This document shows, one piece after another, positions 5,166 to 62,954 of a DNA stretch of 64,000 nucleotides. Position numbers and translations under genes: made by a program. This stretch comes from Methanobacteriota archaeon (GTDB taxonomy: Archaea; Thermoplasmatota; Poseidoniia; MGIII; CG-Epi1): assembly GCA_002687355.1 (NCBI GenBank), contig NYZZ01000041.1:38156-102155 (forward strand), written 5' to 3'. Under the pieces are notes generated by a model. That model had not been told where the DNA came from. It did no database searches and was given only the letters and a program-made list of their open reading frames with translations. Position 1 is the first letter of the stretch. Each line of letters starts with the position of its first letter.

Positions 5166-5788
5166 TCGCTTTCCTCCAGCCGCGCTACCAACTCTGCTTT
5201 TTTGCCCGAAATCGGCAGGCCGCGCTCCTTCAATTCCCCCTTCAGCTCGGAGACGGTGAGTGCACTCCAGTCGCGCACATCATCCTTGCCAGAATCGCCC
5301 TCCGTGTCGGCTTCTGCATCAACTTCGCGTGGGTCGACGCCGGTAACTTCGGCTTCGTACTCATCTTCGGCAGCTTCCAATTCGGCCACAGTTTCATCAG
5401 TCCACTCGACTCCTTCGTTTGCACGGTCTAGAATGCGCCTGCGGCGTACGTCAGACCAGTCAGGGTTGATGACTACTAGGTTGGACGGATCAATCGGCCG
5501 TTGTAGTTCAGTCCCATCAGACTTGTGATAGGTAAAGCCGTCGACGTAAATCTTGCGCGCACGACGATCTACCTGCGAGATGCGGTGCCCCTCACTACCA
5601 CGCCCCTCGCCGCGCACAATAAGCACACGATCGCCGGTCCGCACCGGAATCGAACGGGGATAGATGTAGCCGCGCTCTTCCTGCCGGCGGCGCAGCCCCC
5701 GGTCTAGCGGGGCCGCCATTTCGCGGTGCCGCCGGTGGAGCGGCGCCGTGTGGCGGGCGAGTCTCTGTTTGCGCGGTTGTTTACTCAT
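5162..5788 (-). CDS. rpl24: 50S ribosomal protein uL24 fused to a C-terminal acidic linker and a SAP motif
   Basis: Canonical L24 start [20 protein letters not shown] and a KOW region. This is followed by an acidic ~70-aa linker and a terminal [30 protein letters not shown], which is a perfect SAP consensus. Start chosen at the Met abutting the L14 stop. Confidence 0.85.
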
Positions 5789-6183
5789 ACTATTGTGGAT
5801 GCCGTAGCGGCAATGCGCGGCCATCTCTCGGCCGCCTCGCGGGCGACGGGTCCCTTGATTCCGGAGCCCCGTGTCTCGCCTAACTCGTTGGTCAGCACGA
5901 CGGCGTTATCTTCGAATTTCACCATAGTCCCGTCAGCGCGACGGTGTGGTCGCCGACTACGCACAATGACTGCGCGTACCAGCTGTCGCCGCATTTCGGG
6001 CGTGCCCTTCTTGACCGATGCGATGACCATATCTCCGACGCCAGCAGCAGGTGACCGGCGGTGAACGCCCTTGTAGTTCAGGACCGTCACAATTTCGACC
6101 ACCTTGGCGCCGCTATTGTCGACGCATTCAATCCGCGCTCCCTGCGGAAGTCCGCGCATCTGCCGACCGGCGACAGCCCTCAT
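5785..6183 (-). CDS. rpl14: 50S ribosomal protein uL14
   Basis: L14 core ([10 protein letters not shown]...). Start set at MRAVAG, abutting the S17 stop; the ORF is open to 6237. Confidence 0.85.
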
Positions 6184-16500: not shown

Positions 16501-19500
16501 CTATTCGCGTAGGACGAATTGCGACTGGCAATGAGGGCAGCCAACTTGGATGGGGCGCTGCGGTGTGTGGACTGCAAGAGTGCTGTTACATGATGGGCAC
16601 GCCAGCTCGAGCGGACCGTCCACAGTGTCGTCAAACTCTGCTTCGCCACCGTCGCCGCGCAACCACCCTATCCCCATCGCACCACCTGCCAGCAGTACCG
16701 TTCCGAGCAGTACCAATCCTAGCAGTTTCATCAAGTCCAATCCTCCCTCGTCGCCGTCGTCAGTAGTAGTTACGGCCGCCTTGACCGTCACCTGCACCTC
16801 ATTGCTCCCGGTTCTTTCGCCGCGCTCATCTTCGACCCACACCGCTGCGGTGTAGGTGCCGGGGGTGTTGAACACCTTGCTGAAGCTGCTCTTGTCATAG
16901 TCGTTAAGCAGGTTTACCTCACGACCCATTGGATCTGTCACGGTCCAGTCAAAGCTCAGCGCCGTATTGTCTCCGTCCGGGTCACTTGACTCAGCCGCCG
17001 AGAAAGTGACCGCCTCGCCGGTCTGCACCTCAATCCCGGTATCTGATGTTATAGGATTCCCCTGAACGAAGACCGTCACTCTCGCCATTGCTAGTGGTGG
17101 TTGGTTAGTGGCTCGCGTGACCGTTACGTAGAATGGGTCTGATGGTGCGCTAGTGAGCAGGTCGTCATCACCCAGCCCCGATGATAATTCACGCACGATA
17201 AGTTTTGCTTGATAGGTAATCTGATTGTTACCGGCTGGCAGGGTGTAGTTGTAGCCGTTACCAGTCAGGCCGGAGTTATCAACCTCCAGGAACTGCCCGT
17301 TGACCAGCTTGAAGACCCAGTCACCGCTACCGACGGACTTGCGAACTAAATCTCCGCTATCTAAATCACCGTCTGGGTTGAAGATTGGGTTGCGGTAGAG
17401 CAGTGTTACTCCCCCATCCTCCAGCCAGTCACTATAGATCCCATCGCCCAAAATGAGTCGGTACTCCAAATCAGCCCGGTCGTCCGGGTCGTACGAGGTG
17501 GAGAAGTCAAAGGTAACATACTCGCCCAGTGCGACAGACGTAGTGTTGCCGTTCAGCATCGCTATCGGTTGGCTGTTGGCCTTTACTGTCAGCGAGAGTA
17601 CGACTTCTTCTGACGGCAGATTCCTGCTATCGCGTACCTGAACCCGTATTAGGTATTCACCTGGATTGGTGAATTCAATATCTTCATCCCAGTCATTGCG
17701 CCAGGAGGTCCACCCCCCCGCGTAGAAGCGGTACTGCAGGTTAGGCACTTCGTCATCGGCATCCGCCATACCGTCGGTGGTTTCGTTGTCCCACGAGCCT
17801 CTGGCATCAACCCTCACCTTCTCATTGACCCACACCGTCGCGGTATCGAGTGTGGCGACCGCGTGCGGTGCATCGTTGGGCACTCCGTCCACATTTAAGG
17901 TAGTGAAGTCGGCGTTGTTGCTCTTGCGCGTCTCCTGACTAGAAAGGTCAATAACCTCAGCATACACTTCGTGGTAGCCTGGATCCAGATCCAGGTAGCC
18001 CCAGCCCAGTTCTAGGCTCAGCTCGGCCCCTGACGCGAGTGCCTGGCAGCCGTCTGGTTGGTTTGGCTCACTAACGCGACACGTGAACTCGCGCACCTCA
18101 TTCGACGAGCGTGGTTCCCCATCATAGATAGTAAGTCGCCATTCCGAAGTCGCGGCACCGCCCACGTTGCGGAAGGTGACGTTCACTTGCAAGTCATTGT
18201 CTTCGTTGGGCTGGTCGCTCTCGGCTGGTGCCGGCTCTTCACCGCCGACTCCGCTCCAGCTAATGGCGATATCGTCGCCCACCACCACCAAATCGGGGGT
18301 ACTGGTCTGTCCCACAGAGGTCATGACCCACAGGTAGACATTGCTTCCTGTGATGATTTCAGGGACTCCATCATTTTGTAGGTCAGCTATCTCCAATCCC
18401 CCATAGTGGGCGGTCATCCCGGAGAGTGAGCTAGTATGGGCTTCGTAATCCCGGGTCTCGCCATCGTAAACCCAGAGTTGGCCGCCATTGGTGCCCCACG
18501 CAATCTCGGAATGAGTATCATTGTCGAAGTCCCCACCGGCAATACCCCAGACGGAACCATAGTCAACTTCGCGGCTCCACTCCAGTGCGCGGCTCTCGCC
18601 GTTGTAAATGATAACGCGTGCCTTTTCGTCACCTTTCTTAGCGGTGCCAACTAGGATTTCGTTGCCTCCATCGTCATCCACATCAGTCAGGGCCAATCCA
18701 TACGCCTCACTCCGGTCAGTATCGATGATGTCCCCGTCGAGTTCATAGCTGCCGCCACTGGCGTGGTAGACTCGCACACTCCCCGACGCGGTGCCCGCTA
18801 CCAGTTCGTTCTGCGCGTCGTCATCGGCATTGCCGGTCGCCAGCCCCACTACGACTTCTTCTAGGTCGCCGCTGCCCCACTCCTCGCCGTAGCTGCTGCC
18901 GTCATAGCCGAATACCCGCACTTCACCATGTGGGTATGGAGTCACGGTGCTTCCTGACAGGACATACTCAATGTAGCCGGTGGCAACGCCGATTTCAGGG
19001 TAAGTAGAGCCGTCCAACTCCGTCACTGACAACCCCAGTGCCGAGTCGATGTTGTCGCTCTGGTAGCTCTGGGTAAAGCTATTGCCAGAGCGGTCGAAGA
19101 TGTAGAGATAACCTTCGCTTCCCTCACCATCCACGCGTCCTTCGTCAGGGGCACCGGTGCTGATTACAATTTCCACATCATTATCGTTGTCCACGTCCGC
19201 CACCACGATACCAACAGGCAGCTTCTCCATTACAGGGCTGACCCAGTCCACGACGTGCGTTTCACCGTCAAAGGCAACAACCTGTCCTGAGCCGCAGCCG
19301 ACCAGTACTTCCAGTGCCGGGTCATCATCAATATCGCCAGCAGCGACCCCCCAGGTCTGTCCGCCTCGCAAGCTGTAGACCGGGCTCCACTCACCCTGCT
19401 GGGGCTCGGTGCTCCAGACTAGTTGCGGGTCGTTGTTACCATCAATTTCCCACGCCTTCAGGACGCCATCATCACCACCGTGGATGACCCACGGTTTGGT

Positions 19501-20649
19501 ATGCATTAGGGAGACCGTAACGCCAGCTCCATTGCTCATCGATTCGCCGCTGTCCCACTCCAGTCGGGTCAGCAGCGAGGAGCCGCTAAGTTCTAGCACA
19601 TACAAGTCACCGTTTCCGACGGCGACCACTAACTCCGGGTTGTCGTTGCTGAAGCCGAGGTCAACTGCTTCTAGCCCGTACGCCGCCTTCAGATCGGTTC
19701 GCTGTACCTCTGGATGGCCGTCTAATAATTCCCCATCACGAAACACAGCTAACTTGTCAGCGCATCCAACGACTAGCTCGTCAATGCCACTGCCGTCTAG
19801 ATCGGCCGCCAGCAGGCCGTAGCAGTAACCGTCTAACGACTCGCCACCGAATTTGTAGCGCCATTGCCGGTCACCAGTTTGCCCATCGAAGACGCCGACC
19901 CAGCCCTGCTTGGTGCCAACCGCGATTTCTAGCGCGGGATCGCTGTCGAGCTGCCCCATCGTGATGCCCCAGACGTTCTCAATCTGCTGGTTATTGAAGT
20001 CCTCTTGCAGGTCTCGGTTCCACTCTGCTTCATCTGGGAAGACTTCTTTGTCCTCGTAAATCTCGGGAGTTACCGCGTCAACGACCCACAGACGCCCCAA
20101 ATCGGCCCCCACAGCCAGCTCAGGGCGACCATCACCATCCAGGTCGCCTGCTGCCAGCCCGAACGGTTCCATCTCCGCGTCGGTGGGGTTGTAGCCGTTG
20201 GACCAAGCGATACCACCAGATGTCCAGTTCTCCTCCGACCGCAGTAGTACTCCGTCCAGAATGCCAACCTTGCCACCAGCCGACCACCTGTAGCCGTATG
20301 CAATCTCTAATGGATCATCATCATCCAGCTGGTCGACGATTAGTCCCCTGACGCTGCTTCCTAGGTCGACCGAGTGCAGCTGACTGCTGTATTTGCTATG
20401 AGTTGCGTTCCAGTCGAGCACGTGCAGATATCCCTGTGCGTTGCCGGCCACTAGCTCGTCGTCACCATCACCATCAATGTCGGCTGCCACGATGGAGTCC
20501 AGTGCCCCCAGCGCGGTGCCCAGCCCGGCACTCCACTGCTCGCTCAGATAGCCGCGATTGGTGTCCGAACGTGCGTCATTCCCCGCCTCGGCGGGCGGAA
20601 ACGTCGGAAGCAGTGTTAGGACAAGCAGAATCGCCAGCAGGCGTCGCAT
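16501..20649 (-). CDS. giant integrin-like surface protein: signal peptide, ~14 FG-GAP repeats, Ig/PKD-like domains, one TM helix, cytoplasmic zinc-ribbon tail
   Basis: N-terminal signal peptide (MRRLLAILLVLTLLPTFPPAEAG). Recurring DxDGDG..ELxVG motifs, e.g. DIDGDGDDELVAG, DLDGDGRPELAVG, DLDGSGIDELVVG. A C-terminal hydrophobic helix LLGLVLLGTVLLAGGAMGIGWL, then CPSC...CPHC. Confidence 0.8.
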   Translation of the reverse strand: MRRLLAILLVLTLLPTFPPAEAGNDARSDTNRGYLSEQWSAGLGTALGALDSIVAADIDGDGDDELVAGNAQGYLHVLDWNATHSKYSSQLHSVDLGSSVRGLIVDQLDDDDPLEIAYGYRWSAGGKVGILDGVLLRSEENWTSGGIAWSNGYNPTDAEMEPFGLAAGDLDGDGRPELAVGADLGRLWVVDAVTPEIYEDKEVFPDEAEWNRDLQEDFNNQQIENVWGITMGQLDSDPALEIAVGTKQGWVGVFDGQTGDRQWRYKFGGESLDGYCYGLLAADLDGSGIDELVVGCADKLAVFRDGELLDGHPEVQRTDLKAAYGLEAVDLGFSNDNPELVVAVGNGDLYVLELSGSSLLTRLEWDSGESMSNGAGVTVSLMHTKPWVIHGGDDGVLKAWEIDGNNDPQLVWSTEPQQGEWSPVYSLRGGQTWGVAAGDIDDDPALEVLVGCGSGQVVAFDGETHVVDWVSPVMEKLPVGIVVADVDNDNDVEIVISTGAPDEGRVDGEGSEGYLYIFDRSGNSFTQSYQSDNIDSALGLSVTELDGSTYPEIGVATGYIEYVLSGSTVTPYPHGEVRVFGYDGSSYGEEWGSGDLEEVVVGLATGNADDDAQNELVAGTASGSVRVYHASGGSYELDGDIIDTDRSEAYGLALTDVDDDGGNEILVGTAKKGDEKARVIIYNGESRALEWSREVDYGSVWGIAGGDFDNDTHSEIAWGTNGGQLWVYDGETRDYEAHTSSLSGMTAHYGGLEIADLQNDGVPEIITGSNVYLWVMTSVGQTSTPDLVVVGDDIAISWSGVGGEEPAPAESDQPNEDNDLQVNVTFRNVGGAATSEWRLTIYDGEPRSSNEVREFTCRVSEPNQPDGCQALASGAELSLELGWGYLDLDPGYHEVYAEVIDLSSQETRKSNNADFTTLNVDGVPNDAPHAVATLDTATVWVNEKVRVDARGSWDNETTDGMADADDEVPNLQYRFYAGGWTSWRNDWDEDIEFTNPGEYLIRVQVRDSRNLPSEEVVLSLTVKANSQPIAMLNGNTTSVALGEYVTFDFSTSYDPDDRADLEYRLILGDGIYSDWLEDGGVTLLYRNPIFNPDGDLDSGDLVRKSVGSGDWVFKLVNGQFLEVDNSGLTGNGYNYTLPAGNNQITYQAKLIVRELSSGLGDDDLLTSAPSDPFYVTVTRATNQPPLAMARVTVFVQGNPITSDTGIEVQTGEAVTFSAAESSDPDGDNTALSFDWTVTDPMGREVNLLNDYDKSSFSKVFNTPGTYTAAVWVEDERGERTGSNEVQVTVKAAVTTTDDGDEGGLDLMKLLGLVLLGTVLLAGGAMGIGWLRGDGGEAEFDDTVDGPLELACPSCNSTLAVHTPQRPIQVGCPHCQSQFVLRE

Positions 20650-20709
20650 GCATTGCCCGCACCGTTCCGGATATTTGTAGTTTACCGCTCTATTTCCGTC
20701 GGTAATGGT

Positions 20710-20979
20710 TCACTCCTTGGACAATCTAGTTTGCAATGCGGTGCGCAATTCGATTTCGCCTAACCCGTCCGTATTGAGGCCCAGCCGCTCCGCCGCGGCG
20801 CGTAATTGCTCTTCCTCGCTGCGCTTTCCCACAGTGCCAAGCGGAAATGCGCGGTAACCCCGGAACTCCCGCCAAGCGACACCCAGTGAACGTGCGGCGT
20901 CAGCCATTCTCTGAGGGCCAAGCAGAACCCACGCCAGCAGGCCGATGACCAGCAGCTCTAACAGGCCGGGTCCGTTCAC
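20710..20979 (-). CDS. tatA: twin-arginine translocase TatA/TatE family protein
   Basis: An N-terminal TM helix followed by an amphipathic helix (LLELLVIGLLAWVLLGPQRMADAARSLGVAWREFR), matching the TatA pattern. Confidence 0.65.
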   Translation of the reverse strand: MNGPGLLELLVIGLLAWVLLGPQRMADAARSLGVAWREFRGYRAFPLGTVGKRSEEEQLRAAAERLGLNTDGLGEIELRTALQTRLSKE

Positions 20980-21317
20980 GAGGCGCCAAGCGCTTGCTCC
21001 AGAAAAGCGCGCCGTTCCGCCTGCGTTGTGGCGCTGATGCCAAAATACTCGTCGAATGCTTCCGTTACGGAGAGTGCGAAGCTGCGGCCGGCGCGCTCCC
21101 GTTCAAGCATCCCTAGCTCGAGTAGCTCGCCGACATGTTCGTAGACTCGGTCGCCCAGCCGACGTTTGAGCTCCGACTGCAGCATTGGTTGTTCATGCGC
21201 CACGAGCGCCAGCGTCCGGAGCAGGTGTCCCGGGATTTCCTGCGGCGCCAGTCGGCGACCATACGTAATCGTTTCACGTCGCAGCTGCAGTGCATACTTT
21301 CCGCCCAGTCGCACCAC
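20976..21317 (-). CDS. small winged-helix protein, possible single-domain ScpB-like SMC partner
   Basis: 113 aa with a G-R-S-F-A-L-S-V-T-E-A-F-D-E-Y-F-G segment resembling the ScpB wH 'GY.L.T.pef.ey' motif. Lies 150 bp downstream of scpA. Confidence 0.4.
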   Translation of the reverse strand: MVRLGGKYALQLRRETITYGRRLAPQEIPGHLLRTLALVAHEQPMLQSELKRRLGDRVYEHVGELLELGMLERERAGRSFALSVTEAFDEYFGISATTQAERRAFLEQALGAS

Positions 21318-21469
21318 TTCCAGTGCACTTTCACGGCCTTGGCAGGCGGCAATCAGCTCCTGCAGGGCCGCGTCCGCCGCCTTGAGAGAGAGTCCCGTAG
21401 CTTCAGCGACCTCCTGCGGCGTCAGCGGCCGGCCAGCAGAGAAGAGTGCAGCCTCAACTGCCTTGACAC

Positions 21470-21988
21470 TCAGCCTGCAGCCTCCCGATTTCGCACGTAA
21501 ATCGAGTGACTGCGCAAGTCCTTCTGCTGGATATCTATGCGGCCTTCCCGCGCCAGGAAAAGCGATCCAACGAAGGTGCGCACGAGGCTGGCGCGCTCGG
21601 GCACATCAACCAGGTCACCAAGCGGAATCGGTTTGCCATTCAGGGTGTTGATTTTCTGCCACACTTGCTCTTTGTAGAGCGTTGGATCGTCGTTATGGAT
21701 TTTATCTGCGAGGTGGCTAGCGCGGTCGTCCAGTACGGTTTGACGTGCCTCGCGCAGTTGCTTTCGTCGCTCTAGTCGCGCGCGGCGCGCCAGTTCCACC
21801 TGCCGTGCATCCTCGAGCGCGCCAACTAGCTCCATCAGCGTCACTCGCCGTTCACCGCGGAACCGCACCGTCTCCTCCAACGGCGGCTCGGCCGCCATAT
21901 CGAGTTGCTCAGCATAGGTAGGTTCCCATCCGAAGTCGAACGGAGCCCACTCCGCCTCTGGCTCTGGAAGCGGCTCGCTCGCCTCGAC
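21470..21988 (-). CDS. scpA: segregation and condensation protein A (kleisin) homologue
   Basis: The HELDPWQLDL segment matches ScpA motif wording and sits at residues 59-68 of the ORF-track protein 21470..22312, not at its N-terminus. The provided DNA has a TAA stop at plus 21989-21991 (minus-strand frame) that contradicts the track's continuous 280-aa ORF, so the 5' boundary is set at ATG 21988 as the longest stop-free reading. The 4-bp ATGA overlap with the smc stop refers to the track start 22312, not this boundary. Confidence 0.5.
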   Translation of the reverse strand, partial: VEASEPLPEPEAEWAPFDFGWEPTYAEQLDMAAEPPLEETVRFRGERRVTLMELVGALEDARQVELARRARLERRKQLREARQTVLDDRASHLADKIHNDDPTLYKEQVWQKINTLNGKPIPLGDLVDVPERASLVRTFVGSLFLAREGRIDIQQKDLRSHSIYVRNREAAG

Positions 21989-22308
21989 CGCGCCCGCCGA
22001 GCGCAGTCGTAGCACGTCCCAAGCCCATCCTAGGATAGCGCCTGCGAGTGGCAAGTCCAGCGCGCCTGCTCTGAGCGCGTGGTTCTGATATTCCTGCAGC
22101 ACTAGACCGAGGTCGAGCTGCCATGGGTCCAGCTCATGCTCGCGCACTAGCTGGAACAGCACTGCGATGCTCCTGGCAAGTGGATCCTCAATGGCCGTGA
22201 TTTCCGCCCCCGCCTCTGAAGCCTGCGCCAACTCCAGGTAGCCGTCAACCCGCTCCGTGTCGCCGCCAACGATGGCCTTGTGAAACAGCAGATGGTTCTC
22301 GACCAAGC

Positions 22309-25300
22309 TCACGCCGCTACATCCCCGACGGGCAGCGAAGCGATGAAGCTGTCAACGTCATGAATTTGATGCATGTGTGAGATTCCATCATCGGCCATGA
22401 AGACACCCAGCACGTGCGCCGCCTCGCGCAGTGCGGCATGGTGCAGGCTCACGACCAGGAACTGTGCAACCGTTGATTGCAATGCAATCGCGCGACCGAT
22501 GTGTTCGGTGTTAACTCCGTCTAGATTTTGATCAGGTTCATCGAGGAGGTAGAAGGGGCTCGGGTCGTAGCGTTGGATGGCGAAGATGAACGCCATGCTA
22601 ACGAGGGATTTTTCACCCCCAGAAAGTAATTCAATTGGGAAGAGCCGCTTGCGCGGCATGCGCGCCTTGATTGAAACGCCCCCCTCGAAAACTGAATCTG
22701 GCTTCTCCAGTTCCAGCCATGCCTTACCACCTCCAGCTAGCTCGGTAAAGGTGGCTTGGAAGTTCTCATCGATGTGTTTATAAACTTCAGTAAACCGCTC
22801 CAGTTTGCGCGCCGATATCTTGGCTTCGAGCGACTCGAGCCTTCGCACTTCCTTGCGCAACTGCTTGCGGTCTTCACGGATGCGTACCAGCCGCTCTTCC
22901 TCCTGCCTGTAGTGCTCGAGTGAGAGCATGTTAACGTTACCCAGCCGGGTGCGCTGCCCTTCGAGCGACTCCCGCTGCACTTCCAGTTGTTCCGCTCCAC
23001 CCACTTGCGAGGGTTGCTCTGCATTCTTAGGCAGCCGCTGCCGCGCTTCCACCAGCTTTGGCTCACGCACCTGGATTTCCAGTTGCAGTTCATCTATAGC
23101 TGTATGCCGACCACGGCCGAATTCTTCGCGTTGTGCCAGTGTAGTTCGTTGGTCGCCGAGCTGGTCGCGTAGGCCGTCACGTCGCTGTCGCAATCCCTCC
23201 AGCTCCTCGAATTTTTCATGTTCCTCTTGCTCTAGTGAGGTAACTTGCTGCGCCAGTTTGCGCGCTAGCTTACGTTCAGTGGCATGCTGCTGCTGGGTCT
23301 CGCGTTGGCCAGTGTTGTTTTGCTCCAGCGCGGCGGCAAGTCGCTGCACTTCCACTGTTGCTGGCACCTCTCCCGCCTCCAACCGCGCCACCTCAGCGCG
23401 TGTCTCAGCCAGTTCGTCACGTAGTGCGGTGAGCGTTTCTTGCAGCTGCGCCAGCGCCTTCGCCTCGGTACCACCGGTAAGCAGCAGTAGATGTTCGGCG
23501 GCTTGCGCAACGCTCTCGTGCTGTGCCACGATCTTGCCCTGCAGCTTTGCCAGTGCTTTCTCGCGCTGCGCCAGCTCGGTTTCCAGCGTCGCCACAGCAC
23601 CTTGGCGTGCCGCGAGTGCATCAGCTACCAGCTGCAGCTGTTCGGCGCTACGTGACACAGTTGAGTCGTAATCGGTGACGCGCGTCTGTATAGTCGCGCA
23701 CTCACTCTCCAGGGCAGCCTTTGCCTGTACTACCACTGTGAGCTCCTCGCGCAGTGTGCTGGCAGTCGCTCCTAGCTCTAGGTTGCGCGCCTGCGCTACC
23801 TTTACGCCTGTGGCCAGTTCATCGAGCGTAGCACGGTCACCGGTCGCAAAGTGTACCCGCGCCCGCGGTGACGATCCACCAGTCATTGCGCCGCCTGGCT
23901 CGAGCAGTTCACCCTCAAGTGTGACCATGCGTCCTTTGCCTAGGAGGGTGCGGGCTTCACGCAGTGAGCGCATGATGACTGTGTCACCAAAAACATTTCC
24001 AAAGGCGTCCGCGTAGCGGGAGTCAAACTGCACCAGTTCCTGCGCAAAGCCAATCGCGCCGGGTTGCTTGAGCAGCAGTAATGCGTTGGCGCGGGGGCGG
24101 TAGCGTCGTAGTTTGTTGAGTGGCAGGAATCGCACCCGCCCCAGCCGGCGTTGTTTCAGGAATTCGATGGCTGTCTCGGCCGCCGCGTCGTCCTCGACCA
24201 CTACCGACTGCATGCGACCGCCCGCTGCGACTTCTAGCGCCAGAGCGTGCTCTTCATCAACTCGCCCTAGCTCGGCAATCGTGCCTACGATGCCAGGCAA
24301 GCCGCCCGCGTCGCGCGCCGCCAGTACTCCCTGCACTGCGCGCGCGTAGCCACCCAGTTCATCTTGCGTGCGCTGCGCAGCCTGTTCAGCAGCCAGTGCA
24401 ACGCTCGCTTCGTGTAGCTCGCGTTCCGCCCCCTCGAGCGCTTCACTAATCTGTGCCAGTTCCCCGTTTAGCTTGTCGTACTTGCGCGTTACCTTGCGCA
24501 GGTTATCTGCTGCGGACTTGCGCCCTAATTGTAGATCTTGCAGATGAAAGTCGATGTCATCAACGTCAGCCTGCGCCGCCACGAGCAACTGTTCGTTACC
24601 CGTCGCCTGCTCACGCGCCTGCGTTAGCTGTAGTTCAAGTTGCTCACGCTCGCCTTCCAACCGGTGGCGCTGCATTTCCAGCGCGCCTGCAGCCTGCCGT
24701 AGCTCGTCCAGTGTAACGCGCTGGGCCTCGATTTCCTGCGATCCACTCGCAGCCGCTCCCTCCCGTTTCGCGAGCTCCGTCTCATTCTCTGCCGCTTGCT
24801 CCACGAGCGTTTCAGTCTCGCTACGAGCTGTATCGAGCGATTTGCGCAGCACCTTTAGTTCAGCAGCAGCAGCGTGATGCTCAGTACGAAGTGTCTTGCG
24901 CATTGTTTCCAGCTCCGTCAGCTGCTTTTGCGCTTGTTCTGAATTGCTTTGGGCCAGTGCCTGTGCGACGCGGGCCTCATCCAGTTGCTGCTGCAATTCG
25001 CGAGCACGGTCGCCGCCGGCGGCGGAGATATCCTCTTCTACATTTTTATATTCGTTTTCGAGAGTTCCAATAGTTGTTTGCCGCTCTTTCAGCTCCCTTT
25101 CCAGCTCTTCCAGCTCTTCTCGGTAGCGAATAACAACCTCGCGACGCGATTCTAGGGAAGCTTCTAGGTCAAGCACCTGCCGCCAGTGACGCAGCAGTTC
25201 GTTTTCTTGCAATTGCAGTAATATGGCTTCAAGCCGTTCGGCATCCCGCTTCTCGCGCTCGAGCTGCCGCAGCAGGCGCTGGACCTCCCGCATTCTCTCT

Positions 25301-25893
25301 TCCAGCAGAGCTAGATCTGCGCCCACATGTTCGCGAGCGGCACGGGTCTTTCGCAATCGCTGGTCGTAGGCAGTTATACCAGCAACATCCTCCAGTTTGC
25401 GCCGTCGCTCGGTTCCTGACATCAGCGAAGTCTGCGTGACGTCCCCTTGTTGGATAATGTTGTAGCCGGTAGCATAAAGTCCGGCACGCGAGAACAGTGC
25501 TTCAAACTCGCTTGCCGAAGAGGGCTCGTTGTTGAGTCGATAGTGGGTAACGGGCTTGCCGCCGCGTAGCTTGACGCTCTTGGTGAACTTGACAACGTCG
25601 CTCTCGATTGATAGATAGCGATCAGAGTTATCGAATAACATGCTCACTCGGCAATGCTTAGCTGCAGATTTGCGTCGCTTTCCTTCTTGGTAGCCGTAAA
25701 TCAACTGACTCAGCCGTCGTGCGCGCAGCAGTTTGGTCGAGCGCGAGCCGAGGATGAAGAGGATGGCATCGGTGATGTTGCTTTTGCCTGAGCCGTTAGG
25801 ACCAGTGATGCAAGTGAAACCGGCTCCGAGGGGAACGGTGACGTGGCCTTTGAAGGATTTAAAGTTCTCGAACTCAAGTTCGAGAAGTCGCAA
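22309..25893 (-). CDS. smc: chromosome segregation ATPase SMC
   Basis: 1194 aa. Walker A GPNGSGKSN; long coiled coils; hinge GIVGTIAELGRVDEEHALALEVAAGG; signature and Walker B LSGGEKSLVSMAFIFAIQ...LLDEPD. Confidence 0.9.
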   Translation of the reverse strand: MRLLELEFENFKSFKGHVTVPLGAGFTCITGPNGSGKSNITDAILFILGSRSTKLLRARRLSQLIYGYQEGKRRKSAAKHCRVSMLFDNSDRYLSIESDVVKFTKSVKLRGGKPVTHYRLNNEPSSASEFEALFSRAGLYATGYNIIQQGDVTQTSLMSGTERRRKLEDVAGITAYDQRLRKTRAAREHVGADLALLEERMREVQRLLRQLEREKRDAERLEAILLQLQENELLRHWRQVLDLEASLESRREVVIRYREELEELERELKERQTTIGTLENEYKNVEEDISAAGGDRARELQQQLDEARVAQALAQSNSEQAQKQLTELETMRKTLRTEHHAAAAELKVLRKSLDTARSETETLVEQAAENETELAKREGAAASGSQEIEAQRVTLDELRQAAGALEMQRHRLEGEREQLELQLTQAREQATGNEQLLVAAQADVDDIDFHLQDLQLGRKSAADNLRKVTRKYDKLNGELAQISEALEGAERELHEASVALAAEQAAQRTQDELGGYARAVQGVLAARDAGGLPGIVGTIAELGRVDEEHALALEVAAGGRMQSVVVEDDAAAETAIEFLKQRRLGRVRFLPLNKLRRYRPRANALLLLKQPGAIGFAQELVQFDSRYADAFGNVFGDTVIMRSLREARTLLGKGRMVTLEGELLEPGGAMTGGSSPRARVHFATGDRATLDELATGVKVAQARNLELGATASTLREELTVVVQAKAALESECATIQTRVTDYDSTVSRSAEQLQLVADALAARQGAVATLETELAQREKALAKLQGKIVAQHESVAQAAEHLLLLTGGTEAKALAQLQETLTALRDELAETRAEVARLEAGEVPATVEVQRLAAALEQNNTGQRETQQQHATERKLARKLAQQVTSLEQEEHEKFEELEGLRQRRDGLRDQLGDQRTTLAQREEFGRGRHTAIDELQLEIQVREPKLVEARQRLPKNAEQPSQVGGAEQLEVQRESLEGQRTRLGNVNMLSLEHYRQEEERLVRIREDRKQLRKEVRRLESLEAKISARKLERFTEVYKHIDENFQATFTELAGGGKAWLELEKPDSVFEGGVSIKARMPRKRLFPIELLSGGEKSLVSMAFIFAIQRYDPSPFYLLDEPDQNLDGVNTEHIGRAIALQSTVAQFLVVSLHHAALREAAHVLGVFMADDGISHMHQIHDVDSFIASLPVGDVAA

Positions 25894-26889
25894 TCAGAAG
25901 GCCTCCAAGTGCGCCTGCCTAGGTTCGGCCGGCAGCACATCAAGATTGCCCCTGACTCCAGCATAGTGCTGCTGTCGGTACATCTTCCAGAAGCCAGAAA
26001 TAAGTCGGCCACGATCGCCGCGGTCGCCTGCGACCAGTGCCGAGAGGTAGCTGCTGCGGTCCTCACGTTGCCAGAGTGGAGTCGGCAGTCCCGCACGGGC
26101 GTACATTCCCTCAAGCAGCAGTCGCGCCACGAGTCCGTTACCCGCTGTGAAAGGTCGCAGCTGTAGCAGGCGGTGGTGGAATAGCGCTGCTCGTTCGAAC
26201 GGGTGCAGCGGCGAAGGTTCGTGCCACCACTCGAGCAACGCTTCTAGTTCATCTTCAACTAGTACCGGAGGTGGGGGAACGAACGCTGAACCAGGTAGGC
26301 TGGCACTCTCCTGCCGCAGTAGGCCGCCGTCGCCTTGCCCTTCGCGCAGTTCCTGATGCATTTTTAGGATGGTGCGTCGGTCGAGCCGTGCAACACGTTC
26401 GCCCGCTTCGCGGTGCAGCCTCCGCAGAGCAAGAAGTTCCAGCACGCGTGTCAGCGGAACACCTGCAGGCGCGCGATCATGCAGCAGAATAGCCTCGGTT
26501 TGTTCACGTGCCAGTGGCTCGGAGGTGAGTAGTAGGTTGCCATGTACTGCCTGTAGCTCGAGACGCTGTGATTCACGCGCTAGAGCTGCAGGAGGCTGTA
26601 GCCGATTCATCGCACGACGCAGGAACTTGAGACGTTGCAGTCCCTTCAGCGCTTTCAAATCAAGGTACGGAGTGCGGAACATGTCGGCCGATGCCTTCAC
26701 CATGCGCTCCACTGCAGCCAGCTCCAATTCAGGTCCGTGGACTGCCTTGAGACGCTCCTGTTCATTGTCATCCGGCTCTTCAGGACCGATATAGTGCTGC
26801 ACTTTCTCGACACGTCCATTGAACTTGAACGATTTGACGAGGTACCAGTACTGTTGCCCGCGTGTGGTCTTGCATGTAAGGTAAACCAT
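25894..26889 (-). CDS. Fic/Doc-fold protein with degenerate active-site motif (LRPFTAGNGLVAR instead of HPFx[DE]GNGRxxR)
   Basis: ALFHHRLLQLRPFTAGNGLVARLLL aligns to the Fic core. The catalytic His, the acidic residue and the first Arg are all substituted. Its stop directly abuts the smc start. Start set at MVYLTCK (ATG 26889) to leave a divergent promoter with arsC; the ORF is open to 27048. Confidence 0.55.
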   Translation of the reverse strand: MVYLTCKTTRGQQYWYLVKSFKFNGRVEKVQHYIGPEEPDDNEQERLKAVHGPELELAAVERMVKASADMFRTPYLDLKALKGLQRLKFLRRAMNRLQPPAALARESQRLELQAVHGNLLLTSEPLAREQTEAILLHDRAPAGVPLTRVLELLALRRLHREAGERVARLDRRTILKMHQELREGQGDGGLLRQESASLPGSAFVPPPPVLVEDELEALLEWWHEPSPLHPFERAALFHHRLLQLRPFTAGNGLVARLLLEGMYARAGLPTPLWQREDRSSYLSALVAGDRGDRGRLISGFWKMYRQQHYAGVRGNLDVLPAEPRQAHLEAF

Positions 26890-27053
26890 AAGCTTGGGGT
26901 TATTGGTTCCACCTTTTAAAGTTTTTGGATTAAGGTTTCCAGTGAGAATATGGGCGTTGCACCACCTTTCCATAGGGAATAGAGCGTAGTGGGGGGAACT
27001 ATAGGCGTCGAACAGGAGATAGGTTTTTGGCACACTGCAGAGTTCCACCCACT

Positions 27054-27458
27054 ATGCACTTGCTCTTCGTCTGCACGGGAAACGCAGCTCGCTCGCAGAT
27101 GGCCGAAGGATGGGCGCGTCACTTGGCACCAGCAGCCCTCATTGAAAGCGGTGGCACCCATCCTGCCGGTCTCTCGAGTCGTGCCGTGGCAGTAATGGCT
27201 GAGGTCGGCATAGATATTTCTGCACAGAGCTCGAAGTCGCTCGAAGAAACGGCATGGCGCAATGCAGATATTGTAATCACGCTCTGCGGCTCTGCCCGTG
27301 AGAATTGTGTGGCGCTGCTTTGGTCATCTCATACACGGCGCAAGCACTGGCGCATAACCGATCCGGTCTCTGGCATGGCCAACGATAATCCACTGATACC
27401 TTTTCGTATGGCGCGCGACGACATTCATGCGAGACTGGAAGAATTTCTCAAAGCCTAG
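27054..27458 (+). CDS. arsC: arsenate reductase / LMW protein-tyrosine-phosphatase family (thioredoxin-coupled ArsC type)
   Basis: P-loop LLFVCTGNAARSQMAEGW (the C-X5-R phosphate-binding loop) and downstream TLCGSARENC cysteines, as in pI258-type ArsC. Start set at MHLLFV. Confidence 0.7.
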   Translation: MHLLFVCTGNAARSQMAEGWARHLAPAALIESGGTHPAGLSSRAVAVMAEVGIDISAQSSKSLEETAWRNADIVITLCGSARENCVALLWSSHTRRKHWRITDPVSGMANDNPLIPFRMARDDIHARLEEFLKA

Positions 27459-28117
27459 TGACTTGCTAACGGCAACAACGAGTTGGCTGCGCGTTCGGTT
27501 GCGTTAGCTACATCATCTAGCCGTTGTGCGACACGATACATATGTGCCGCTGCAAGTGGTGCTTCGTCACCGTGTGAGAAGACATAGGCGGCTGTCGCCG
27601 CTTCCTTCTCGTCAGCCTTGTGCTCGAGGAGGTTAACGCTGGCAATCAGTTGGTGCAATTCTTCCTTCACCTTGGTGGCAAAGCCAGACTCCATCAGTTC
27701 CTGAAGCTTTTCGACCGCCTTTGCATACTCATTCACCGTTGTCTGCACTGCCTGTGCTTGCGTCATCAGCAACTTGCGTGCTTTCGTATCTTCGAACAGC
27801 GGCCGGAAGGAGATTATTTCAGCGACATTCTCGGCATAGTCTGCGATACGGTCCTGTTGCGAGATCATGTCCAAGAAGATTTCCTTGGAGATTGCGAGTC
27901 TCACGCTGCCACGCATCACCTCACGCAGTTCATTCTTGAGATCATCAGCCTCCAACTCGGTCTTTGAGGTGGCCCCAATTGCCTCACTCGCATCACCATC
28001 TTCGCAGGCCACCGCGACGCAGCGCTCCATATGTTCGACTGTCTCGAGCGCCTTGGCAGCGTGACGGTAGTAAGTCTCGAAAACGCTGGGTCCGACGCGA
28101 CTCTCGAAAAACTTCAT
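27455..28117 (-). CDS. DUF47/TIGR00153 PhoU-like phosphate-transport accessory protein
   Basis: 220-aa all-helical protein immediately upstream of, and overlapping, a PiT transporter. This is the classic pit-associated partner. Confidence 0.65.
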   Translation of the reverse strand: MKFFESRVGPSVFETYYRHAAKALETVEHMERCVAVACEDGDASEAIGATSKTELEADDLKNELREVMRGSVRLAISKEIFLDMISQQDRIADYAENVAEIISFRPLFEDTKARKLLMTQAQAVQTTVNEYAKAVEKLQELMESGFATKVKEELHQLIASVNLLEHKADEKEAATAAYVFSHGDEAPLAAAHMYRVAQRLDDVANATERAANSLLPLASH

Positions 28118-29517
28118 TGCGCACCTCCAATTTCAATTTTAGGTCCCGACCTGATTGATTGATAAAGGATCCACATGATGACGCTCAGTATCAGGCTGAC
28201 CGAGACGACGAACCGCGTTTCATCCAGCCCGAAAATCAGGTAAAGCAGGATCGCCCCGATACCGGCTGCCGGGATGCTGGCGACCCAGCTAGCAGCAATC
28301 TTTCCAAAAACGCTGAAATCCACTGATGAGGTTCCTCTTGCCAGCCCGACTCCCACCACAGAGCCCACAAGGGTATGTGTAGTGGAGATGGGCACAGCCA
28401 AGAATGGCATGGAGAATAAGAGAACGGTGGTCGCGGCGGCGAACTGAGCTGCAAACCCGCGAGTTGGAGTAATGTGAGTTATTTTCTCACCAATGGTCTT
28501 CATAACGCGATGGCCCCAGGTAGCTATACCGATGACGATGCCAACACTTCCCAGCAGTACCAACCATAGAGGGACCTCGGCTTCCGGACTTAGTACGCCA
28601 GCTTGGTAAACTTGCCATACTGCCGCCATTGGACCAATGGCGTTGCTACGGTCATTCGCCCCGTGTGCAAAGGCGACATAGCATGCGGTGATTATCTGGA
28701 GCCAGACAAATATGTGTTCGACTCCCGCATAACCTTTCTCCTTGAATTCATGCTTGCGTAGTAGTAAGTAGAGAGCCAGATTAGCTAGTGTTGCCAATAA
28801 CAGTGCTATCTGCAGGCTCTGTATAGGTAGGCATTCTACGACAGCATCCGTGAAACTAAGATTTGCGGCACAATTTTTGGCAGGTAGCCAGGCGGACGGC
28901 AGCAGGAATTTGAGGGCTTTATACTGGAGCGCCAGTCCAAGTACAAAGAATGTCGGGAAAGCCAGGATTGGTGCCATCCAGCGCGATCGTTGGATGGGGT
29001 CCTCAGCTTCCATAATTGTCATGCGTATAACCATGAAAGTCACGTAGGCCAACACTCCACCCAGTAATGGAGAAATAACCCAACTCAAGGCTATCTGGCC
29101 AACTTTCTGAAAATCCACCAACCCTGGGTCGATAAAGAGGCCGAAACCGATTATGCCACCCACAATGCTATGAGTTGTAGAGACAGGCAATCCGTAGCGG
29201 GTGGCAACAGTAATCCAAAGCGCGGCCGCTAGCATGGCAGCGATGAAGCCATATTGTAGCTCGCGAGAAAGACTAGCCATCTCCTCCTCGGAAATAACAA
29301 GCACCCCCTTGCGTACCGTGTCAGTTACGGCATCTCCAGCGAAGAAGGCACCGCAAAATTCGAAAACCGCAGCAATGATTATGGCGTTGCGCAGAGTCAG
29401 CGCACCGCTCCCAACGCTGGTGCCCATAGCGTTGGCGACGTCGTTGGCGCCGATGTTCCACGCCATGTACGCTGCTACCGCAATGGCTAGTAGTATCATC
29501 AATTCGAGTCCGAACAC
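28114..29517 (-). CDS. pit: inorganic phosphate transporter, PiT family
   Basis: 467-aa polytopic membrane protein with two GANDVANAMGTSVGSG / GANDRSNAIGPMA PiT signature repeats. Confidence 0.85.
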   Translation of the reverse strand: MFGLELMILLAIAVAAYMAWNIGANDVANAMGTSVGSGALTLRNAIIIAAVFEFCGAFFAGDAVTDTVRKGVLVISEEEMASLSRELQYGFIAAMLAAALWITVATRYGLPVSTTHSIVGGIIGFGLFIDPGLVDFQKVGQIALSWVISPLLGGVLAYVTFMVIRMTIMEAEDPIQRSRWMAPILAFPTFFVLGLALQYKALKFLLPSAWLPAKNCAANLSFTDAVVECLPIQSLQIALLLATLANLALYLLLRKHEFKEKGYAGVEHIFVWLQIITACYVAFAHGANDRSNAIGPMAAVWQVYQAGVLSPEAEVPLWLVLLGSVGIVIGIATWGHRVMKTIGEKITHITPTRGFAAQFAAATTVLLFSMPFLAVPISTTHTLVGSVVGVGLARGTSSVDFSVFGKIAASWVASIPAAGIGAILLYLIFGLDETRFVVSVSLILSVIMWILYQSIRSGPKIEIGGAQ

Positions 29518-36202: not shown

Positions 36203-36496
36203 TCAAAGTGTTGCGCACAGCCCCAGAATTTCGGAGTTGCCACCGTCCAAGATGGTCACGGCTGAAATTCCAAATGGTTTGCCGCATGCTATACCTAAGT
36301 CGGCATTAGTACCATCGAAATGGTATACAGGCACCTCGCCCCGTTCGATATCCTCGACAGCTGCTGCAGGGCAGTTGCGAGCCAGTAGCACAAGCTTCGC
36401 CTTACCTGCAGCAACAGCTTCACGACATTGGCTAGTGCCGAGTTGCACGTTGCCAGTGCCGATAGCACTGCGCAGCTCGCGGTTAATGTCCATCAA
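36203..36496 (-). CDS. rpl30e: 50S ribosomal protein eL30
   Basis: [13 protein letters not shown]...[30 protein letters not shown] is the L30e signature. Canonical position downstream of rpoA2. Confidence 0.8.
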
Positions 36497-38763
36497 GTCT
36501 CACTGGAAGGATTGTAGATAACGCTCACGGCACCGGTACCTAGATGCACTGGCTGGCCAACAATAATATTCTCAGCGACGCCGGTTAGCACATCCTCTTC
36601 ACCAGTCAGCCCGGCCAGCAGCAGGTGAGTGGAGGTAATCTCGAACGCTGCTCGCGCCAGGACAGAGGTTTTCGCCCCTGAAATGCCGTGGCGACCGATA
36701 GCGCGTATGTTGCCGTTGTTGGTCATTACGTCAGCCACCAGCAGATTGTGGCGCATATCGACTACAAGCCCCTGCTCTTCCAGCGTTTCGTTCAGTTCGT
36801 AGGCAATTGCGGTCCGCGTCGCCTCGACGCCAAGCACCGCGCGTATTTCATGCAGTGAGTTGGTGGAGGTTCGGGCTAGGTCGACTCGCTCCATTTCCAG
36901 TATTTCCTTCAAGTTGGACCCTTCGGTGAAGATAATGTACTCGTCCTTTTCCTTGCGCACAATGGCGCGGGCGATAGAGGTGATACCGTCTACTTTCGCC
37001 CGCCGCACCTTTTCCTCCAAGACGTAGAGTTTCTTGAACGACGGCTCAGGTTCCGACATAACAATAGAGTCGCCTTCGATGGTGATATCGCACCGCAGGC
37101 GGGCAGATTTGCGGATGCGCGCCCCGAAGTCGGTGAGCGTGATACCACGCTTCTTCAGCTCCTTCATGTTTGGTTCAACCACCAGTCTCAGGTTGGTCAT
37201 GTCGGTACGGATGTCAGCTAGGCTACCCGCCGAGCGCGACTCGATGCGTGACGCTAAGTCGAGCGCCGCTTCACGGTCAGTTGCGTGCTGCGGTTCGAGG
37301 AAAACTTCCATAATTGGAGTTTTTGGCTCTCGTCTTGCATCGACAATCTCGATTAGCCTCGGCAGCCCTAGCGTCACGTTCATCTCTGCCACGCCAGCAT
37401 AGTGGAAGGTGCGCATGGTCATCTGCGTCCCCGGCTCGCCGATAGACTGCGCGGCAATGATGCCGACCGCCTCTGTAGCATCGACACTTGATAGAGTGCA
37501 CTGCTCAACCGCTCGCTGAGTGATTTCGCTGAATTGCTTCGCCGAGAGTTTGCGTCCGACACTTCGCTTCGCTAGTTGGCGCACAATACCATGCGGCAGC
37601 GTGGCGCCTTGCTTTTCTAGAGCTTTCTGCAGCTTTGTTTCAGTTGCGACCAGTTCTTCGTAATAGGCTACCAGTTCTCCGATCGCTTTTTGCTTGAGCC
37701 TTTCGCGCTCAGTTTTCATCACAATTTCCTTGCGGTAGTGCTCCGGCAGTTTTCCCGTCAGTTTTAGTGCCCGGGTACGGAAGGGGTTGAGCTTTCGTTT
37801 AACAACATCATCGGCCAGCGTCTCGACTAATTTCGTTTTATCAATGGGAGAGGGCTGCACCAGTTCCTGCGCGGCAGCCGCCTCGGCCACCCTGCGGAAC
37901 TCTTCCAGACGAGTCTGTGGAACCTCGGCTGCTTTCAACTCTATGTCAGTTGCGGCGGCAGCCTGACTCGCGAGATGCAAGCCGGCACCGAATAGCCCCG
38001 CAGCGGTTTTCTCGGAGAAGCCTAGCTCGGTGTAGAGGTTGCGTGATGCGATACGCTCCTGCTCGAATCGCAGTCGATCGCGCTCCAAGTCGAAAGTGTC
38101 CTCAATCTGGGTGTAGTTGCGCGCCGATCGTACTGGCTTACCATCCATCTTCTGGAATTCATTCAATCGCAGCGTACGCGGCAGCTCGACCAGCCGTGCA
38201 ACGCGTAAGAAAGTGACGTAAGGCTCCTGCATATGCTGCGGTAGCAACGCTTTTGCCTCATCTGGAATATTAGGTCGGTCGAACGAAACCACCTCCGAGA
38301 TAACAGATAGAAAGCGGATACCGTGCGCTTCCTTTAGATAGATATAGCCGCTAAAGGGTGGTCGGAATTGTTTGGCATTGACTGGGAATGCGACTCCCAC
38401 CAGAGTCTCACCGCGCCGACCCATATGCTCGCGAATCTCATCAATAGTATATCCTTCTGGCAGTGACCAGATTACACCCAGCTTCTTTTCGACCCTCCGC
38501 AGCGCGGCTTCGGCTGAGACTACCCCTTCGCCAGTAGCCTCTTCTTCCTGTGCGCCAGCGATGACCGCCTCGCGATCAACTTGCCGGTTGCCCACAGATT
38601 CGACTAGTTCTAGGATTTCGCGGAAATGGAATTGCTTGCACAAATCTTCCAAGCTCGCTTTCTTGAGCGACCCGAGCTGATATCCGGCGTCGACTGCCTT
38701 CTCGGCTAGCGCCAGCGTCATACCGCGCCGCTCGAGCGCCCGAATGGTGTCGAAACGGGCCAT
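36493..38763 (-). CDS. rpoA2: DNA-directed RNA polymerase subunit A'' with ~340-aa N-terminal extension
   Basis: Canonical A'' begins around residue 340 (…[27 protein letters not shown]…) and runs to the end. The N-terminal 340 aa are extra, with HhH-like segments ([27 protein letters not shown]; [21 protein letters not shown]). ATGA overlap with the rpoA1 stop. Confidence 0.85.
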
Positions 38764-62837: not shown

Positions 62838-62954
62838 ACGTGGGCATTTACGCTGGTCTAAATTAGTATAATCTATAGGGACGACCACCACGCCGGGTTG
62901 GAGTTGTAGCGCTCGCTGTTGTTCCAGACGCTGGGAGCTAGTATGTGCTGAGTT

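Follow-up and report, generated by a model that had tools for sequence, protein, structure and literature searches.

The DNA analysed here is a 64,000-nucleotide window of contig NYZZ01000041.1 (assembly GCA_002687355.1, deposited as Methanobacteriota archaeon), and it contains a condensin operon whose first gene encodes a protein of the Fic fold. This gene, which we call ficL, occupies window positions 25894–26889 of the minus strand and is followed on the same strand by smc, scpA, scpB and a tatA-like gene, so that five translationally coupled genes are arranged in the order ficL-smc-scpA-scpB-tatA. Upstream, ficL is flanked by a divergent arsC. A first-pass annotation of the window had described ficL as a degenerate Fic gene coupled to smc and had placed it in a Marine Group II setting; the organism is a member of Marine Group III (MGIII) of the class Poseidoniia. 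We demonstrate that the condensin operon of MGIII begins with ficL and that FicL, although non-catalytic, is a Fic-fold protein under strong constraint.

The reading frame of ficL is intact and runs from an ATG at 26889 to a TGA at 25894–25896, which is included in the coding sequence, yielding 331 residues. An alternative open reading frame (ORF) with a GTG start would comprise 384 residues. Since the proteins in nearly all of the 34 FicL homologue clusters have 330–332 residues and begin with MVYLT, the ATG at 26889 was taken as the start. The alignment to the Fic/Doc core claimed in the first-pass annotation holds, and both the profile search and the structure prediction proposed there found the fold: the Pfam Fic model (PF02661) matches FicL at E=7e-16 (59.3 bits against a gathering cutoff of 24), and an AlphaFold2 model built from an input of 22 sequences reached a predicted local distance difference test score (pLDDT) of 91.1 and a predicted template modelling score of 0.87. 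A Foldseek search of the PDB with this model returned FICD/HYPE, C. elegans Fic-1, BT_2513, CdFic and SoFic with E values down to 1e-10 and a probability of 1.00, and a FicL sequence profile searched against the PDB aligned FICD over positions 100–307 at E=3.4e-35. Because the results from Pfam, AlphaFold2, Foldseek and the profile search agree, the Fic fold of FicL is real and its lineage is FICD-like (class II). In public databases, relatives of FicL bear only the name 'Fic family protein'.

In the model, a three-stranded antiparallel sheet (residues 2–35) is followed by a long helix (41–68) and an all-helical core. The sheet forms a basic N-terminal domain (N-domain; residues 1–36, 26782–26889) with a charge of +5 over its 36 residues, the family mean being +5.7. 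Pfam searches at E<=10 with ten diverse N-termini gave nothing usable about the identity of this domain. The core (residues ~100–313, 25951–26592) is the part recognised as FICD-like by the profile search and Foldseek. The C-terminal tail (residues 321–331, 25897–25929), ending in PRQAHLEAF, is disordered in the model (pLDDT <50). It is conserved nevertheless, being kept in MGIII and recurring as RxGQxxLxLF within longer proteins of a sister clade whose genes have no smc behind them. Flap, pocket and tail are the best-conserved segments of the Fic part.

At residues 245–256 (26122–26157), where active Fic proteins carry HPFx[D/E]GNGRxxR, FicL reads RPFTAGNGLVAR, that is R-P-F-T-A-G-N-G-L-V-A-R. 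The replacements His to Arg, acidic residue to Ala and first Arg to Leu had been noted from the beginning, and a survey of ~60 MGIII-type FicL sequences showed that the motif is degenerate throughout the clade, following the pattern [R/K/H]PF-x-[S/A/T/K/H/Y]-[G/Y/D]-NG-[L/I/V/M]-x-x-R. Position 1 is R or K, with H solely in the sublineage of L003/P0002. At position 5 the survey found S, A, T, K, H or Y but no acidic residue (D or E), and at position 9 L, I, V or M in place of the R in every sequence, while PF, NG and the final R are retained. The counterpart of the class-II inhibitory motif (S/T)xxxE(G/N) is GNLLLTSEP, in which the positions of Ser, Glu and Gly are taken by N, T/S and S, and the Glu is absent from every aligned member. 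FicL contains neither the motif of active AMPylases, HxFx(D/E)GN(G/K)RxxR, nor the (S/T)xxxE(G/N) of the class-II inhibitory helix.

An exhaustive profile search of 1.84 billion representatives yielded 240 proteins at E<=1e-30, of which the best 150 were inspected. The combination of an N-terminal sheet with a Fic domain was found in more than 100 of these 150, and more than 140 of the 150 retain both HPFxDGNGRxGR and (S/T)xxxEG, which indicates that FicL is a degenerate offshoot of an otherwise canonical family. Its descent from class II is suggested by canonical relatives of the same architecture that carry TTAIEG or SNAIEG.

Loss of the motif was not accompanied by decay of the gene. Pairwise ratios of non-synonymous to synonymous substitution rates (dN/dS) of ficL are about 0.05, with a range of 0.03–0.16, equal to or below those of smc in the same genome pairs (0.04–0.21). 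Together with the constant ORF length, these low ratios indicate that ficL is not decaying and that its product is functional and under strong purifying selection. The earlier reading of FicL as a pseudo-enzyme is therefore reasonable: none of the His, the Asp/Glu, the first Arg and the class-II inhibitory Glu remains, and still selection on the protein is strong.

Between ficL and smc there is no intergenic base, as had been reported; the ficL TGA directly abuts the first codon of smc (25891–25893). This codon is a TTG (MRLLELEFENFKSF...) rather than the ATG of the first-pass annotation, and each of the 30 related genomes has either TTG or GTG at this place. A Shine-Dalgarno-like GGAGG for smc lies within the last ficL codons (25902–25906), 8 nt before the smc start. 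The smc gene (22309–25893) encodes 1194 residues with SMC_N and SMC_hinge matches (the latter at 103.9 bits) and scores as an archaeal/bacterial SMC equivalog (TIGR02169, 776 bits against a cutoff of 729.4), in agreement with the original assignment as a canonical chromosomal SMC and not one of the Wadjet or Lamassu type. For the defence SMC systems Wadjet (JetABCD) and Lamassu (LmuABC), PADLOC gave partial, generic ATPase matches (LmuB 100 bits, JetC <=24 bits), and neither ScpA nor ScpB had a PADLOC match. Many public gene calls of MGIII SMC (P0251–P0271) begin at an internal ATG and have 1111 residues; because smc starts with TTG or GTG, these calls are shortened and lack the first ~84 residues including Walker A.

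The remaining cistrons follow smc as described before. scpA (21470–22312, 280 residues) starts with a GTG that overlaps the smc stop (GTGA) and was tentatively assigned as the kleisin gene from weak matches and its conserved position: the Pfam model SMC_ScpA gives 17.4 bits, under its cutoff of 24.6, and the two ends of the protein weakly match archaeal ScpA structures (6ivh, E=0.017; 5xns, E=0.004). Between the parts that match the N- and C-terminal domains of archaeal ScpA lies a middle region of ~95 residues. In most archaeal ScpAs this region is reported to have 30–47 residues, and these proteins fail to bind ScpB (PMC7055376). A middle region longer than in the non-binders and a tightly coupled scpB hint at a genuine ScpA–ScpB pair here. 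scpB (20976–21473) had been regarded as a small winged-helix protein, listed as a 113-residue ORF behind a 152-nt 'gap'. The gap codes in the same frame (...AVEAALFSAGRPL...) and appears to encode the first winged helix, so that the re-called ScpB has 165 residues and is near full length, covering positions 3–159 of 186 of TIGR00281 with 81.1 bits, just under the cutoff of 89.2. The gene is under-called by standard ORF rules; its apparent start in the window is a CTG that overlaps the scpA stop (CTGA in the window and in L001–L007, ATGA in MGIII relatives of low GC content). The last coupled cistron (20710–20979, 89 residues) has a GTG start overlapping the scpB stop (GTGA) and matches the TatA/TatB family below the cutoffs. 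In the operon of the window only ficL has an ATG, and every downstream cistron begins at a weak start codon that touches or overlaps the preceding stop. No orc1/cdc6 gene of a replication origin was present among the 20 large ORFs scanned. A scan for sigma-70 promoters and intrinsic terminators, which is not applicable to archaea, found fewer sites than in shuffled sequences.

A scan of one genome per GTDB species identified 31 ficL loci in 30 genomes, labelled Marine Group III, Poseidoniia, Poseidoniales or, generically, Methanobacteriota, uncultured archaeon or Thalassarchaeaceae. Across these loci the identity of FicL falls from 97% to 44% and the GC content from 57% to 36%. Wherever the contig reaches far enough, the 30 genomes share the order ficL-smc-scpA-scpB-tatA, and the tatA-like gene holds its position in all 24 loci that extend to it. 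The junction YTGGAGGCYTTC-TGA-[T/G]TG (GGAGGCYTTC-TGA-[T/G]TG) is invariant in 30 of 30 loci. Recurrence of junction and gene order in 30 genomes, with an intact ORF of 330–332 residues, is beyond chance, and the translational coupling to smc proposed in the first-pass annotation is thus conserved across MGIII. The upstream side of ficL is variable: a divergent arsC is found in most loci, L030 has a third arrangement, and in L001–L003, whose FicL is 85–97% identical to that of the window, pit-phoU is inverted and arsC absent. As the upstream neighbourhood differs even among such close relatives, rearrangements stop exactly at the ficL promoter. The breakpoint of the pit-phoU inversion (window 27054–29517 compared with 5544–7681 in L001–L003) lies right there.

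The closest relatives of FicL outside MGIII (P0041 and P0187–P0190) are 36–38% identical and form the sister clade mentioned above. They share with FicL the N-domain, the loss of Asp/Glu and the first Arg, the loss of the inhibitory Glu and the RxGQxxLxLF tail; their motif is HPF[E/S/T]xGNG[L/I]LGR, with the His kept. Identity between the two clades amounts to 61% in the N-domain, compared with 33% in the Fic core. In the six sister-clade loci whose contig continues past the Fic gene, ~200 nt separate it from genes for a 142–149-residue unknown protein and a KaiC-like ATPase. Loci that reach further also contain a second KaiC-like ATPase and a pilin-like gene, and upstream neighbours vary. The cluster as a whole (L040–L043, L045, L049, L050) reads 142–149-residue protein, KaiC-like, 184–191-residue protein, second KaiC-like and pilin-like. 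In the sister-clade loci examined, the Fic gene was never next to smc, and no housekeeping genes common to these and the MGIII loci were found. The nearest SMC homologues outside MGIII (44%, 37% and 34% identity) retain smc-scpA-scpB, start with ATG and have their own upstream DNA of 190–400 nt; no Fic-like gene lies near these loci. One of them, L051, comes from the same source study as some of the sister-clade Fic loci.

A sister clade that is never beside smc and outgroup smc loci with an ATG and no Fic gene point to a single derived event in the MGIII ancestor that joined ficL to smc, the linkage being confined to MGIII. Within this order, what the first-pass annotation anticipated from related genomes therefore stands, since the Fic fold is real and the arrangement with smc is conserved rather than random; in the loci examined outside MGIII, the linkage to smc is absent.

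Within the otherwise variable 90 nt upstream of ficL lies the conserved element CTTTAAAAGGTGGAACCAAT (26902–26921, minus strand), which consists of a TATA-like TTTAAAA (26914–26920) and the 12-nt box GGTGGAACCAAT (26902–26913). The 19-mer TTTAAAAGGTGGAACCAAT, comprising TATA and box, has the same sequence in 31 of 31 MGIII loci, and 12 nt separate its end from the ficL ATG. The element is unique in the 64-kb window, and 0 occurrences are expected by chance. When 450 kb of MGIII DNA were searched with the 12-mer at <=1 mismatch, one further match was found, which is chance level; at two mismatches there were 8 matches against 3.9 expected, a number reached by 4 of 100 shuffles. The centre of TTTAAAA lies ~28 nt before the ficL ATG. 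In archaea this is the usual distance from the TATA box to the transcription start, and the ficL mRNA is therefore likely leaderless.

Several other roles of the box were considered and rejected. Its uniqueness in the window and in the 450 kb of MGIII loci speaks against a generic MGIII promoter consensus, and the single extra match at one mismatch against a parS-like array near the operon. As a Shine-Dalgarno sequence of ficL or as part of an alternative start it is poorly placed, because GGTGG is 19–23 nt away from the ATG and is not followed by an in-frame start that is conserved. No RNA family was found by Rfam in positions 20500–27500 at E<=1, and the box thus matches no known RNA.

A putative, degenerate direct copy of the box (GGTGGTGCAAC, 26956–26966, minus strand) lies about 52 nt further upstream. 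In most MGIII loci the same place is occupied by a semi-conserved A-rich stretch followed by GGTGG[T/A]nCA. The sister-clade genes, in their unrelated contexts, are preceded at the same distance by TATTTAAGGTGGAACCAA, a nearly unchanged box, and in the sister-clade locus L044 an inverted pair, ATTGGTTCCACC ... TTATTAAGGGTGGACCTAAT, flanks the TATA box. Since the same box precedes genes with different neighbours, its distribution indicates that it travels with the Fic-like gene, or its N-domain, and not with smc. The N-domain is also the best-conserved part of the protein between the clades, with the box co-conserved alongside it.

Relatives with other N-domain sequences have different repeated boxes at the same position relative to the TATA box. 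In canonical (HPFEDGNGRVGR-type) homologues from the DPANN archaea Micrarchaeota and Woesearchaeota (L032, L033, L035 and L036), three copies of TGTAGCCATA/TATGGCTACA surround TTTATATA; within the 100 nt upstream of these Fic genes, one repeat copy stands immediately before the ATG. The N-domain also occurs as stand-alone proteins of 51–53 residues with an isoelectric point >10 in Woesearchaeota and another uncultured archaeon (L037, 39–200; L038 and L039, 8001–8156). Their genes in L038 and L039 are preceded by three GTGCCTAAAAT copies around the TATA box, one of them just after TATA; L037 offers only 38 nt of upstream sequence. The gene behind the stand-alone N-domain in L038 encodes a 539-residue membrane or extracellular protein, not a Fic protein.

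Given the fold, the lost motif and the co-conservation of box and N-domain, we tentatively propose that FicL is a non-catalytic, self-regulating DNA-binding protein of the Fic fold whose promoter was captured to drive condensin, a reading that we consider quite possible but short of probable. FicL would descend from class-II (FICD-like) Fic AMPylases and have lost catalysis while keeping the Fic fold, the flap and the basic pocket. Its N-domain would bind the box GGTGGAACCAAT, probably as an oligomer, and FicL bound there would repress its own promoter, with the former nucleotide pocket as a possible ligand sensor. In the MGIII ancestor, the self-regulated ficL and its promoter would have been placed directly before smc, which could then have lost its own promoter and ATG. 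Transcription of condensin would consequently be gated by the box, and its translation by re-initiation at the weak TTG/GTG, served by the GGAGG in the last ficL codons.

Several points weigh against this proposal. The box could bind another conserved factor or be an unusually constrained core-promoter element, and the distal copy is degenerate and only putative. The DPANN examples are closely interrelated, so that conservation upstream of their genes is in itself weak evidence and only the internal repetition of their boxes counts. The leaderless start and the single transcription unit were deduced from spacing alone, the sensing of a ligand by the pocket is conjecture, and the operon junction is a single evolutionary event.

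This last point also favours a rival explanation, in which the adjacency has no functional meaning for condensin. The role of FicL would then be unrelated, the box would be a core-promoter or third-party site, and the junction, after smc had lost its own promoter and ATG, would be locked by the dependence of smc on ficL transcription and translation. The linkage arose once in one order, the family occurs elsewhere without smc, and this genome normally packs unrelated genes into compact coupled operons, scpB-tatA and pit-phoU being examples. However, box and N-domain are conserved together in clades whose gene contexts differ, and relatives show analogous repeated boxes. These observations suggest that the gene product itself acts at its own promoter and in MGIII also controls smc, and we regard mere adjacency as rather unlikely. 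If FicL nevertheless were a passenger, the case would show how an essential operon can become tied to an unrelated gene when a gene is relocated and a start codon is lost.

The first-pass annotation had instead presented FicL as a Fic-fold partner of archaeal SMC. In its explicit form, FicL would be a physical accessory subunit or loader of SMC-ScpAB, docking with its flap or pocket or its C-terminal tail on the SMC head, ScpA or ScpB, and the coupling would match the amounts of the proteins. The zero-base junction with its embedded Shine-Dalgarno sequence is indeed invariant in 30 genomes despite FicL identities of 44–97% and GC contents of 36–57%; upstream neighbours were rearranged and the joint of ficL and smc never was; and flap, pocket and tail are the segments of the Fic part that changed least. 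Moreover, archaeal ScpB often does not bind ScpA, and the accessory subunits of archaeal SMC complexes are unclear (PMC7055376). Still, the sister clade with the same motif changes and the same tail is never beside smc, and the nearest outgroup smc operons manage with no Fic gene at all. Coupling in this operon does not imply a complex, because it is equally tight for the tatA-like gene, for which no connection to condensin is known. The claim of a partnership was drawn from operon membership alone, and the linkage is restricted to MGIII while the box follows the Fic gene and not smc; a physical partnership is unlikely.

More speculative is the notion that FicL is an archaeal functional analogue of ParB, a nucleotide-fold pseudo-enzyme that would recognise GGTGGAACCAAT through a small beta-sheet DNA-binding domain and recruit or license Smc-ScpAB there. 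In bacteria, ParB-parS has been described to load Smc-ScpAB (PMC9449133). As far as that account of ParB goes, the likeness is one of analogy only: a site-specific DNA binder with a nucleotide fold, as proposed for FicL, would be tied to condensin and have its site beside its own gene. The proteins are not homologous, however, only one box occurs in 450 kb of MGIII DNA, and contact of FicL with SMC is conjecture. We consider this analogy highly improbable. If it were true, no dedicated loader or regulator of condensin would have been described in archaea before FicL, and its N-domain would represent a new family of DNA-binding domains, widespread N-terminal to class-II Fic domains and stand-alone in DPANN archaea.

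Least credible is an enzyme with altered chemistry, which might use Arg/Lys to transfer phosphoryl or nucleotidyl groups, or might remove a modification by hydrolysis, with SMC/ScpA or some other protein as its target. Divergent motifs are found in other Fic-fold enzymes, such as the kinase Doc and AnkX; FicL strictly retains the GNG anion nest together with the last Arg, the flap and the helices around them; and one sublineage has a His at position 1 (L003/P0002). However, the catalytic base is missing from nearly all members, the metal-binding Asp/Glu and first Arg from all, and the regulatory Glu that FICD uses for deAMPylation from every aligned member, and tolerance of R, K or H at position 1 disfavours a precise catalytic role of this residue.

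A type II toxin-antitoxin module (FicTA or Phd-Doc) was rejected because there is no small partner ORF and the toxin motif is degenerate. A defence island was rejected as well: PADLOC gave generic Fic and ABC-ATPase matches only, and the neighbourhood is one of housekeeping genes with ribosomal protein and RNA polymerase operons.

The closest relatives of FicL in sequence, with the same fold, are FICD/HYPE and the class-II Fic AMPylases (PDB 4U04 and 6I7G; CdFic, 4X2E; BT_2513, 3CUC). Compared to FICD, FicL lacks the catalytic His, the Asp/Glu, the first Arg and the inhibitory Glu, it has a basic three-stranded sheet at the N-terminus where FICD has tetratricopeptide repeats, and its gene is part of a condensin operon. 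Degenerate FIC domains have been described before in Bartonella Bep effectors, in Campylobacter fetus Fic paralogues and in AvrB, for which the cited accounts report a preserved scaffold, loss of HPFx[D/E]GN[G/K]R and no AMPylation (PMC8401265, PMC5651007, PMC2686095). In these accounts they are bacterial effectors or parts of toxin-antitoxin systems, whereas FicL belongs to a core-chromosome gene of an archaeon, evolves under strong purifying selection and has a different N-domain. SoFic is the best PADLOC match to FicL (59.5 bits over residues 155–269, within the Fic core only) and is listed by PADLOC as a defence candidate. Like FicL it joins a Fic domain to a putative DNA-binding domain, but SoFic is an active class-I AMPylase with a C-terminal winged helix-turn-helix, whereas the degenerate FicL carries a beta domain at its N-terminus and is encoded among housekeeping genes. 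The type II toxin-antitoxin systems Phd-Doc and FicT-FicA connect a Fic-fold protein with autoregulation, which is exerted at operator repeats overlapping the system's own promoter. The tie between a Fic-fold protein and autoregulation is what we propose for FicL. However, FicL has no separate antitoxin gene, its putative DNA-binding module and its Fic domain are parts of one protein, and FicL is not a toxin because the Fic part is inactive.

A literature search found no paper that ties a Fic domain to SMC or ScpA, and a search on degenerate Fic domains and DNA binding by archaeal Fic proteins returned bacterial effector and toxin-antitoxin work only. Degenerate Fic domains and Fic proteins with DNA-binding domains such as SoFic are already known; the invariant promoter box upstream of ficL is new. 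Expression, loading and regulation of archaeal Smc-ScpA(B) are largely unknown, and the MGIII case is relevant to how an uncultured lineage regulates condensin. Throughout this order of abundant marine archaea, condensin stands behind, and depends in its translation on, a conserved non-catalytic Fic-fold protein with an invariant box. The basic N-terminal beta-sheet module, found in more than 100 of the best 150 Fic-domain cluster representatives and in some stand-alone proteins, may be a so far undescribed autoregulatory DNA-binding domain.

Other genes of the window have features of their own. Just downstream of tatA, a giant FG-GAP/PKD-like surface protein of 1382 residues with zinc-ribbon-like Cys motifs at its C-terminus is encoded (16501–20649, minus strand), and a homologous giant FG-GAP protein also lies behind scpB in the non-MGIII locus L051 (10982–13612). 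Ribosomal protein L24 (Ribosomal_L26 family; 5162–5824, minus strand) carries a C-terminal SAP domain (PF02037, E=5e-15, residues 186–218), a fusion that is unusual for an archaeal ribosomal protein. An RNA polymerase A''-like ORF of 756 residues (36493–38763, minus strand) matches Rpb1 domain 5 from residue 355 and is preceded by ~350 N-terminal residues without a Pfam match. Finally, a protein of 778 residues (60555–62891, minus strand) consists largely of pentapeptide repeats, with 18 matched stretches and 495 bits.

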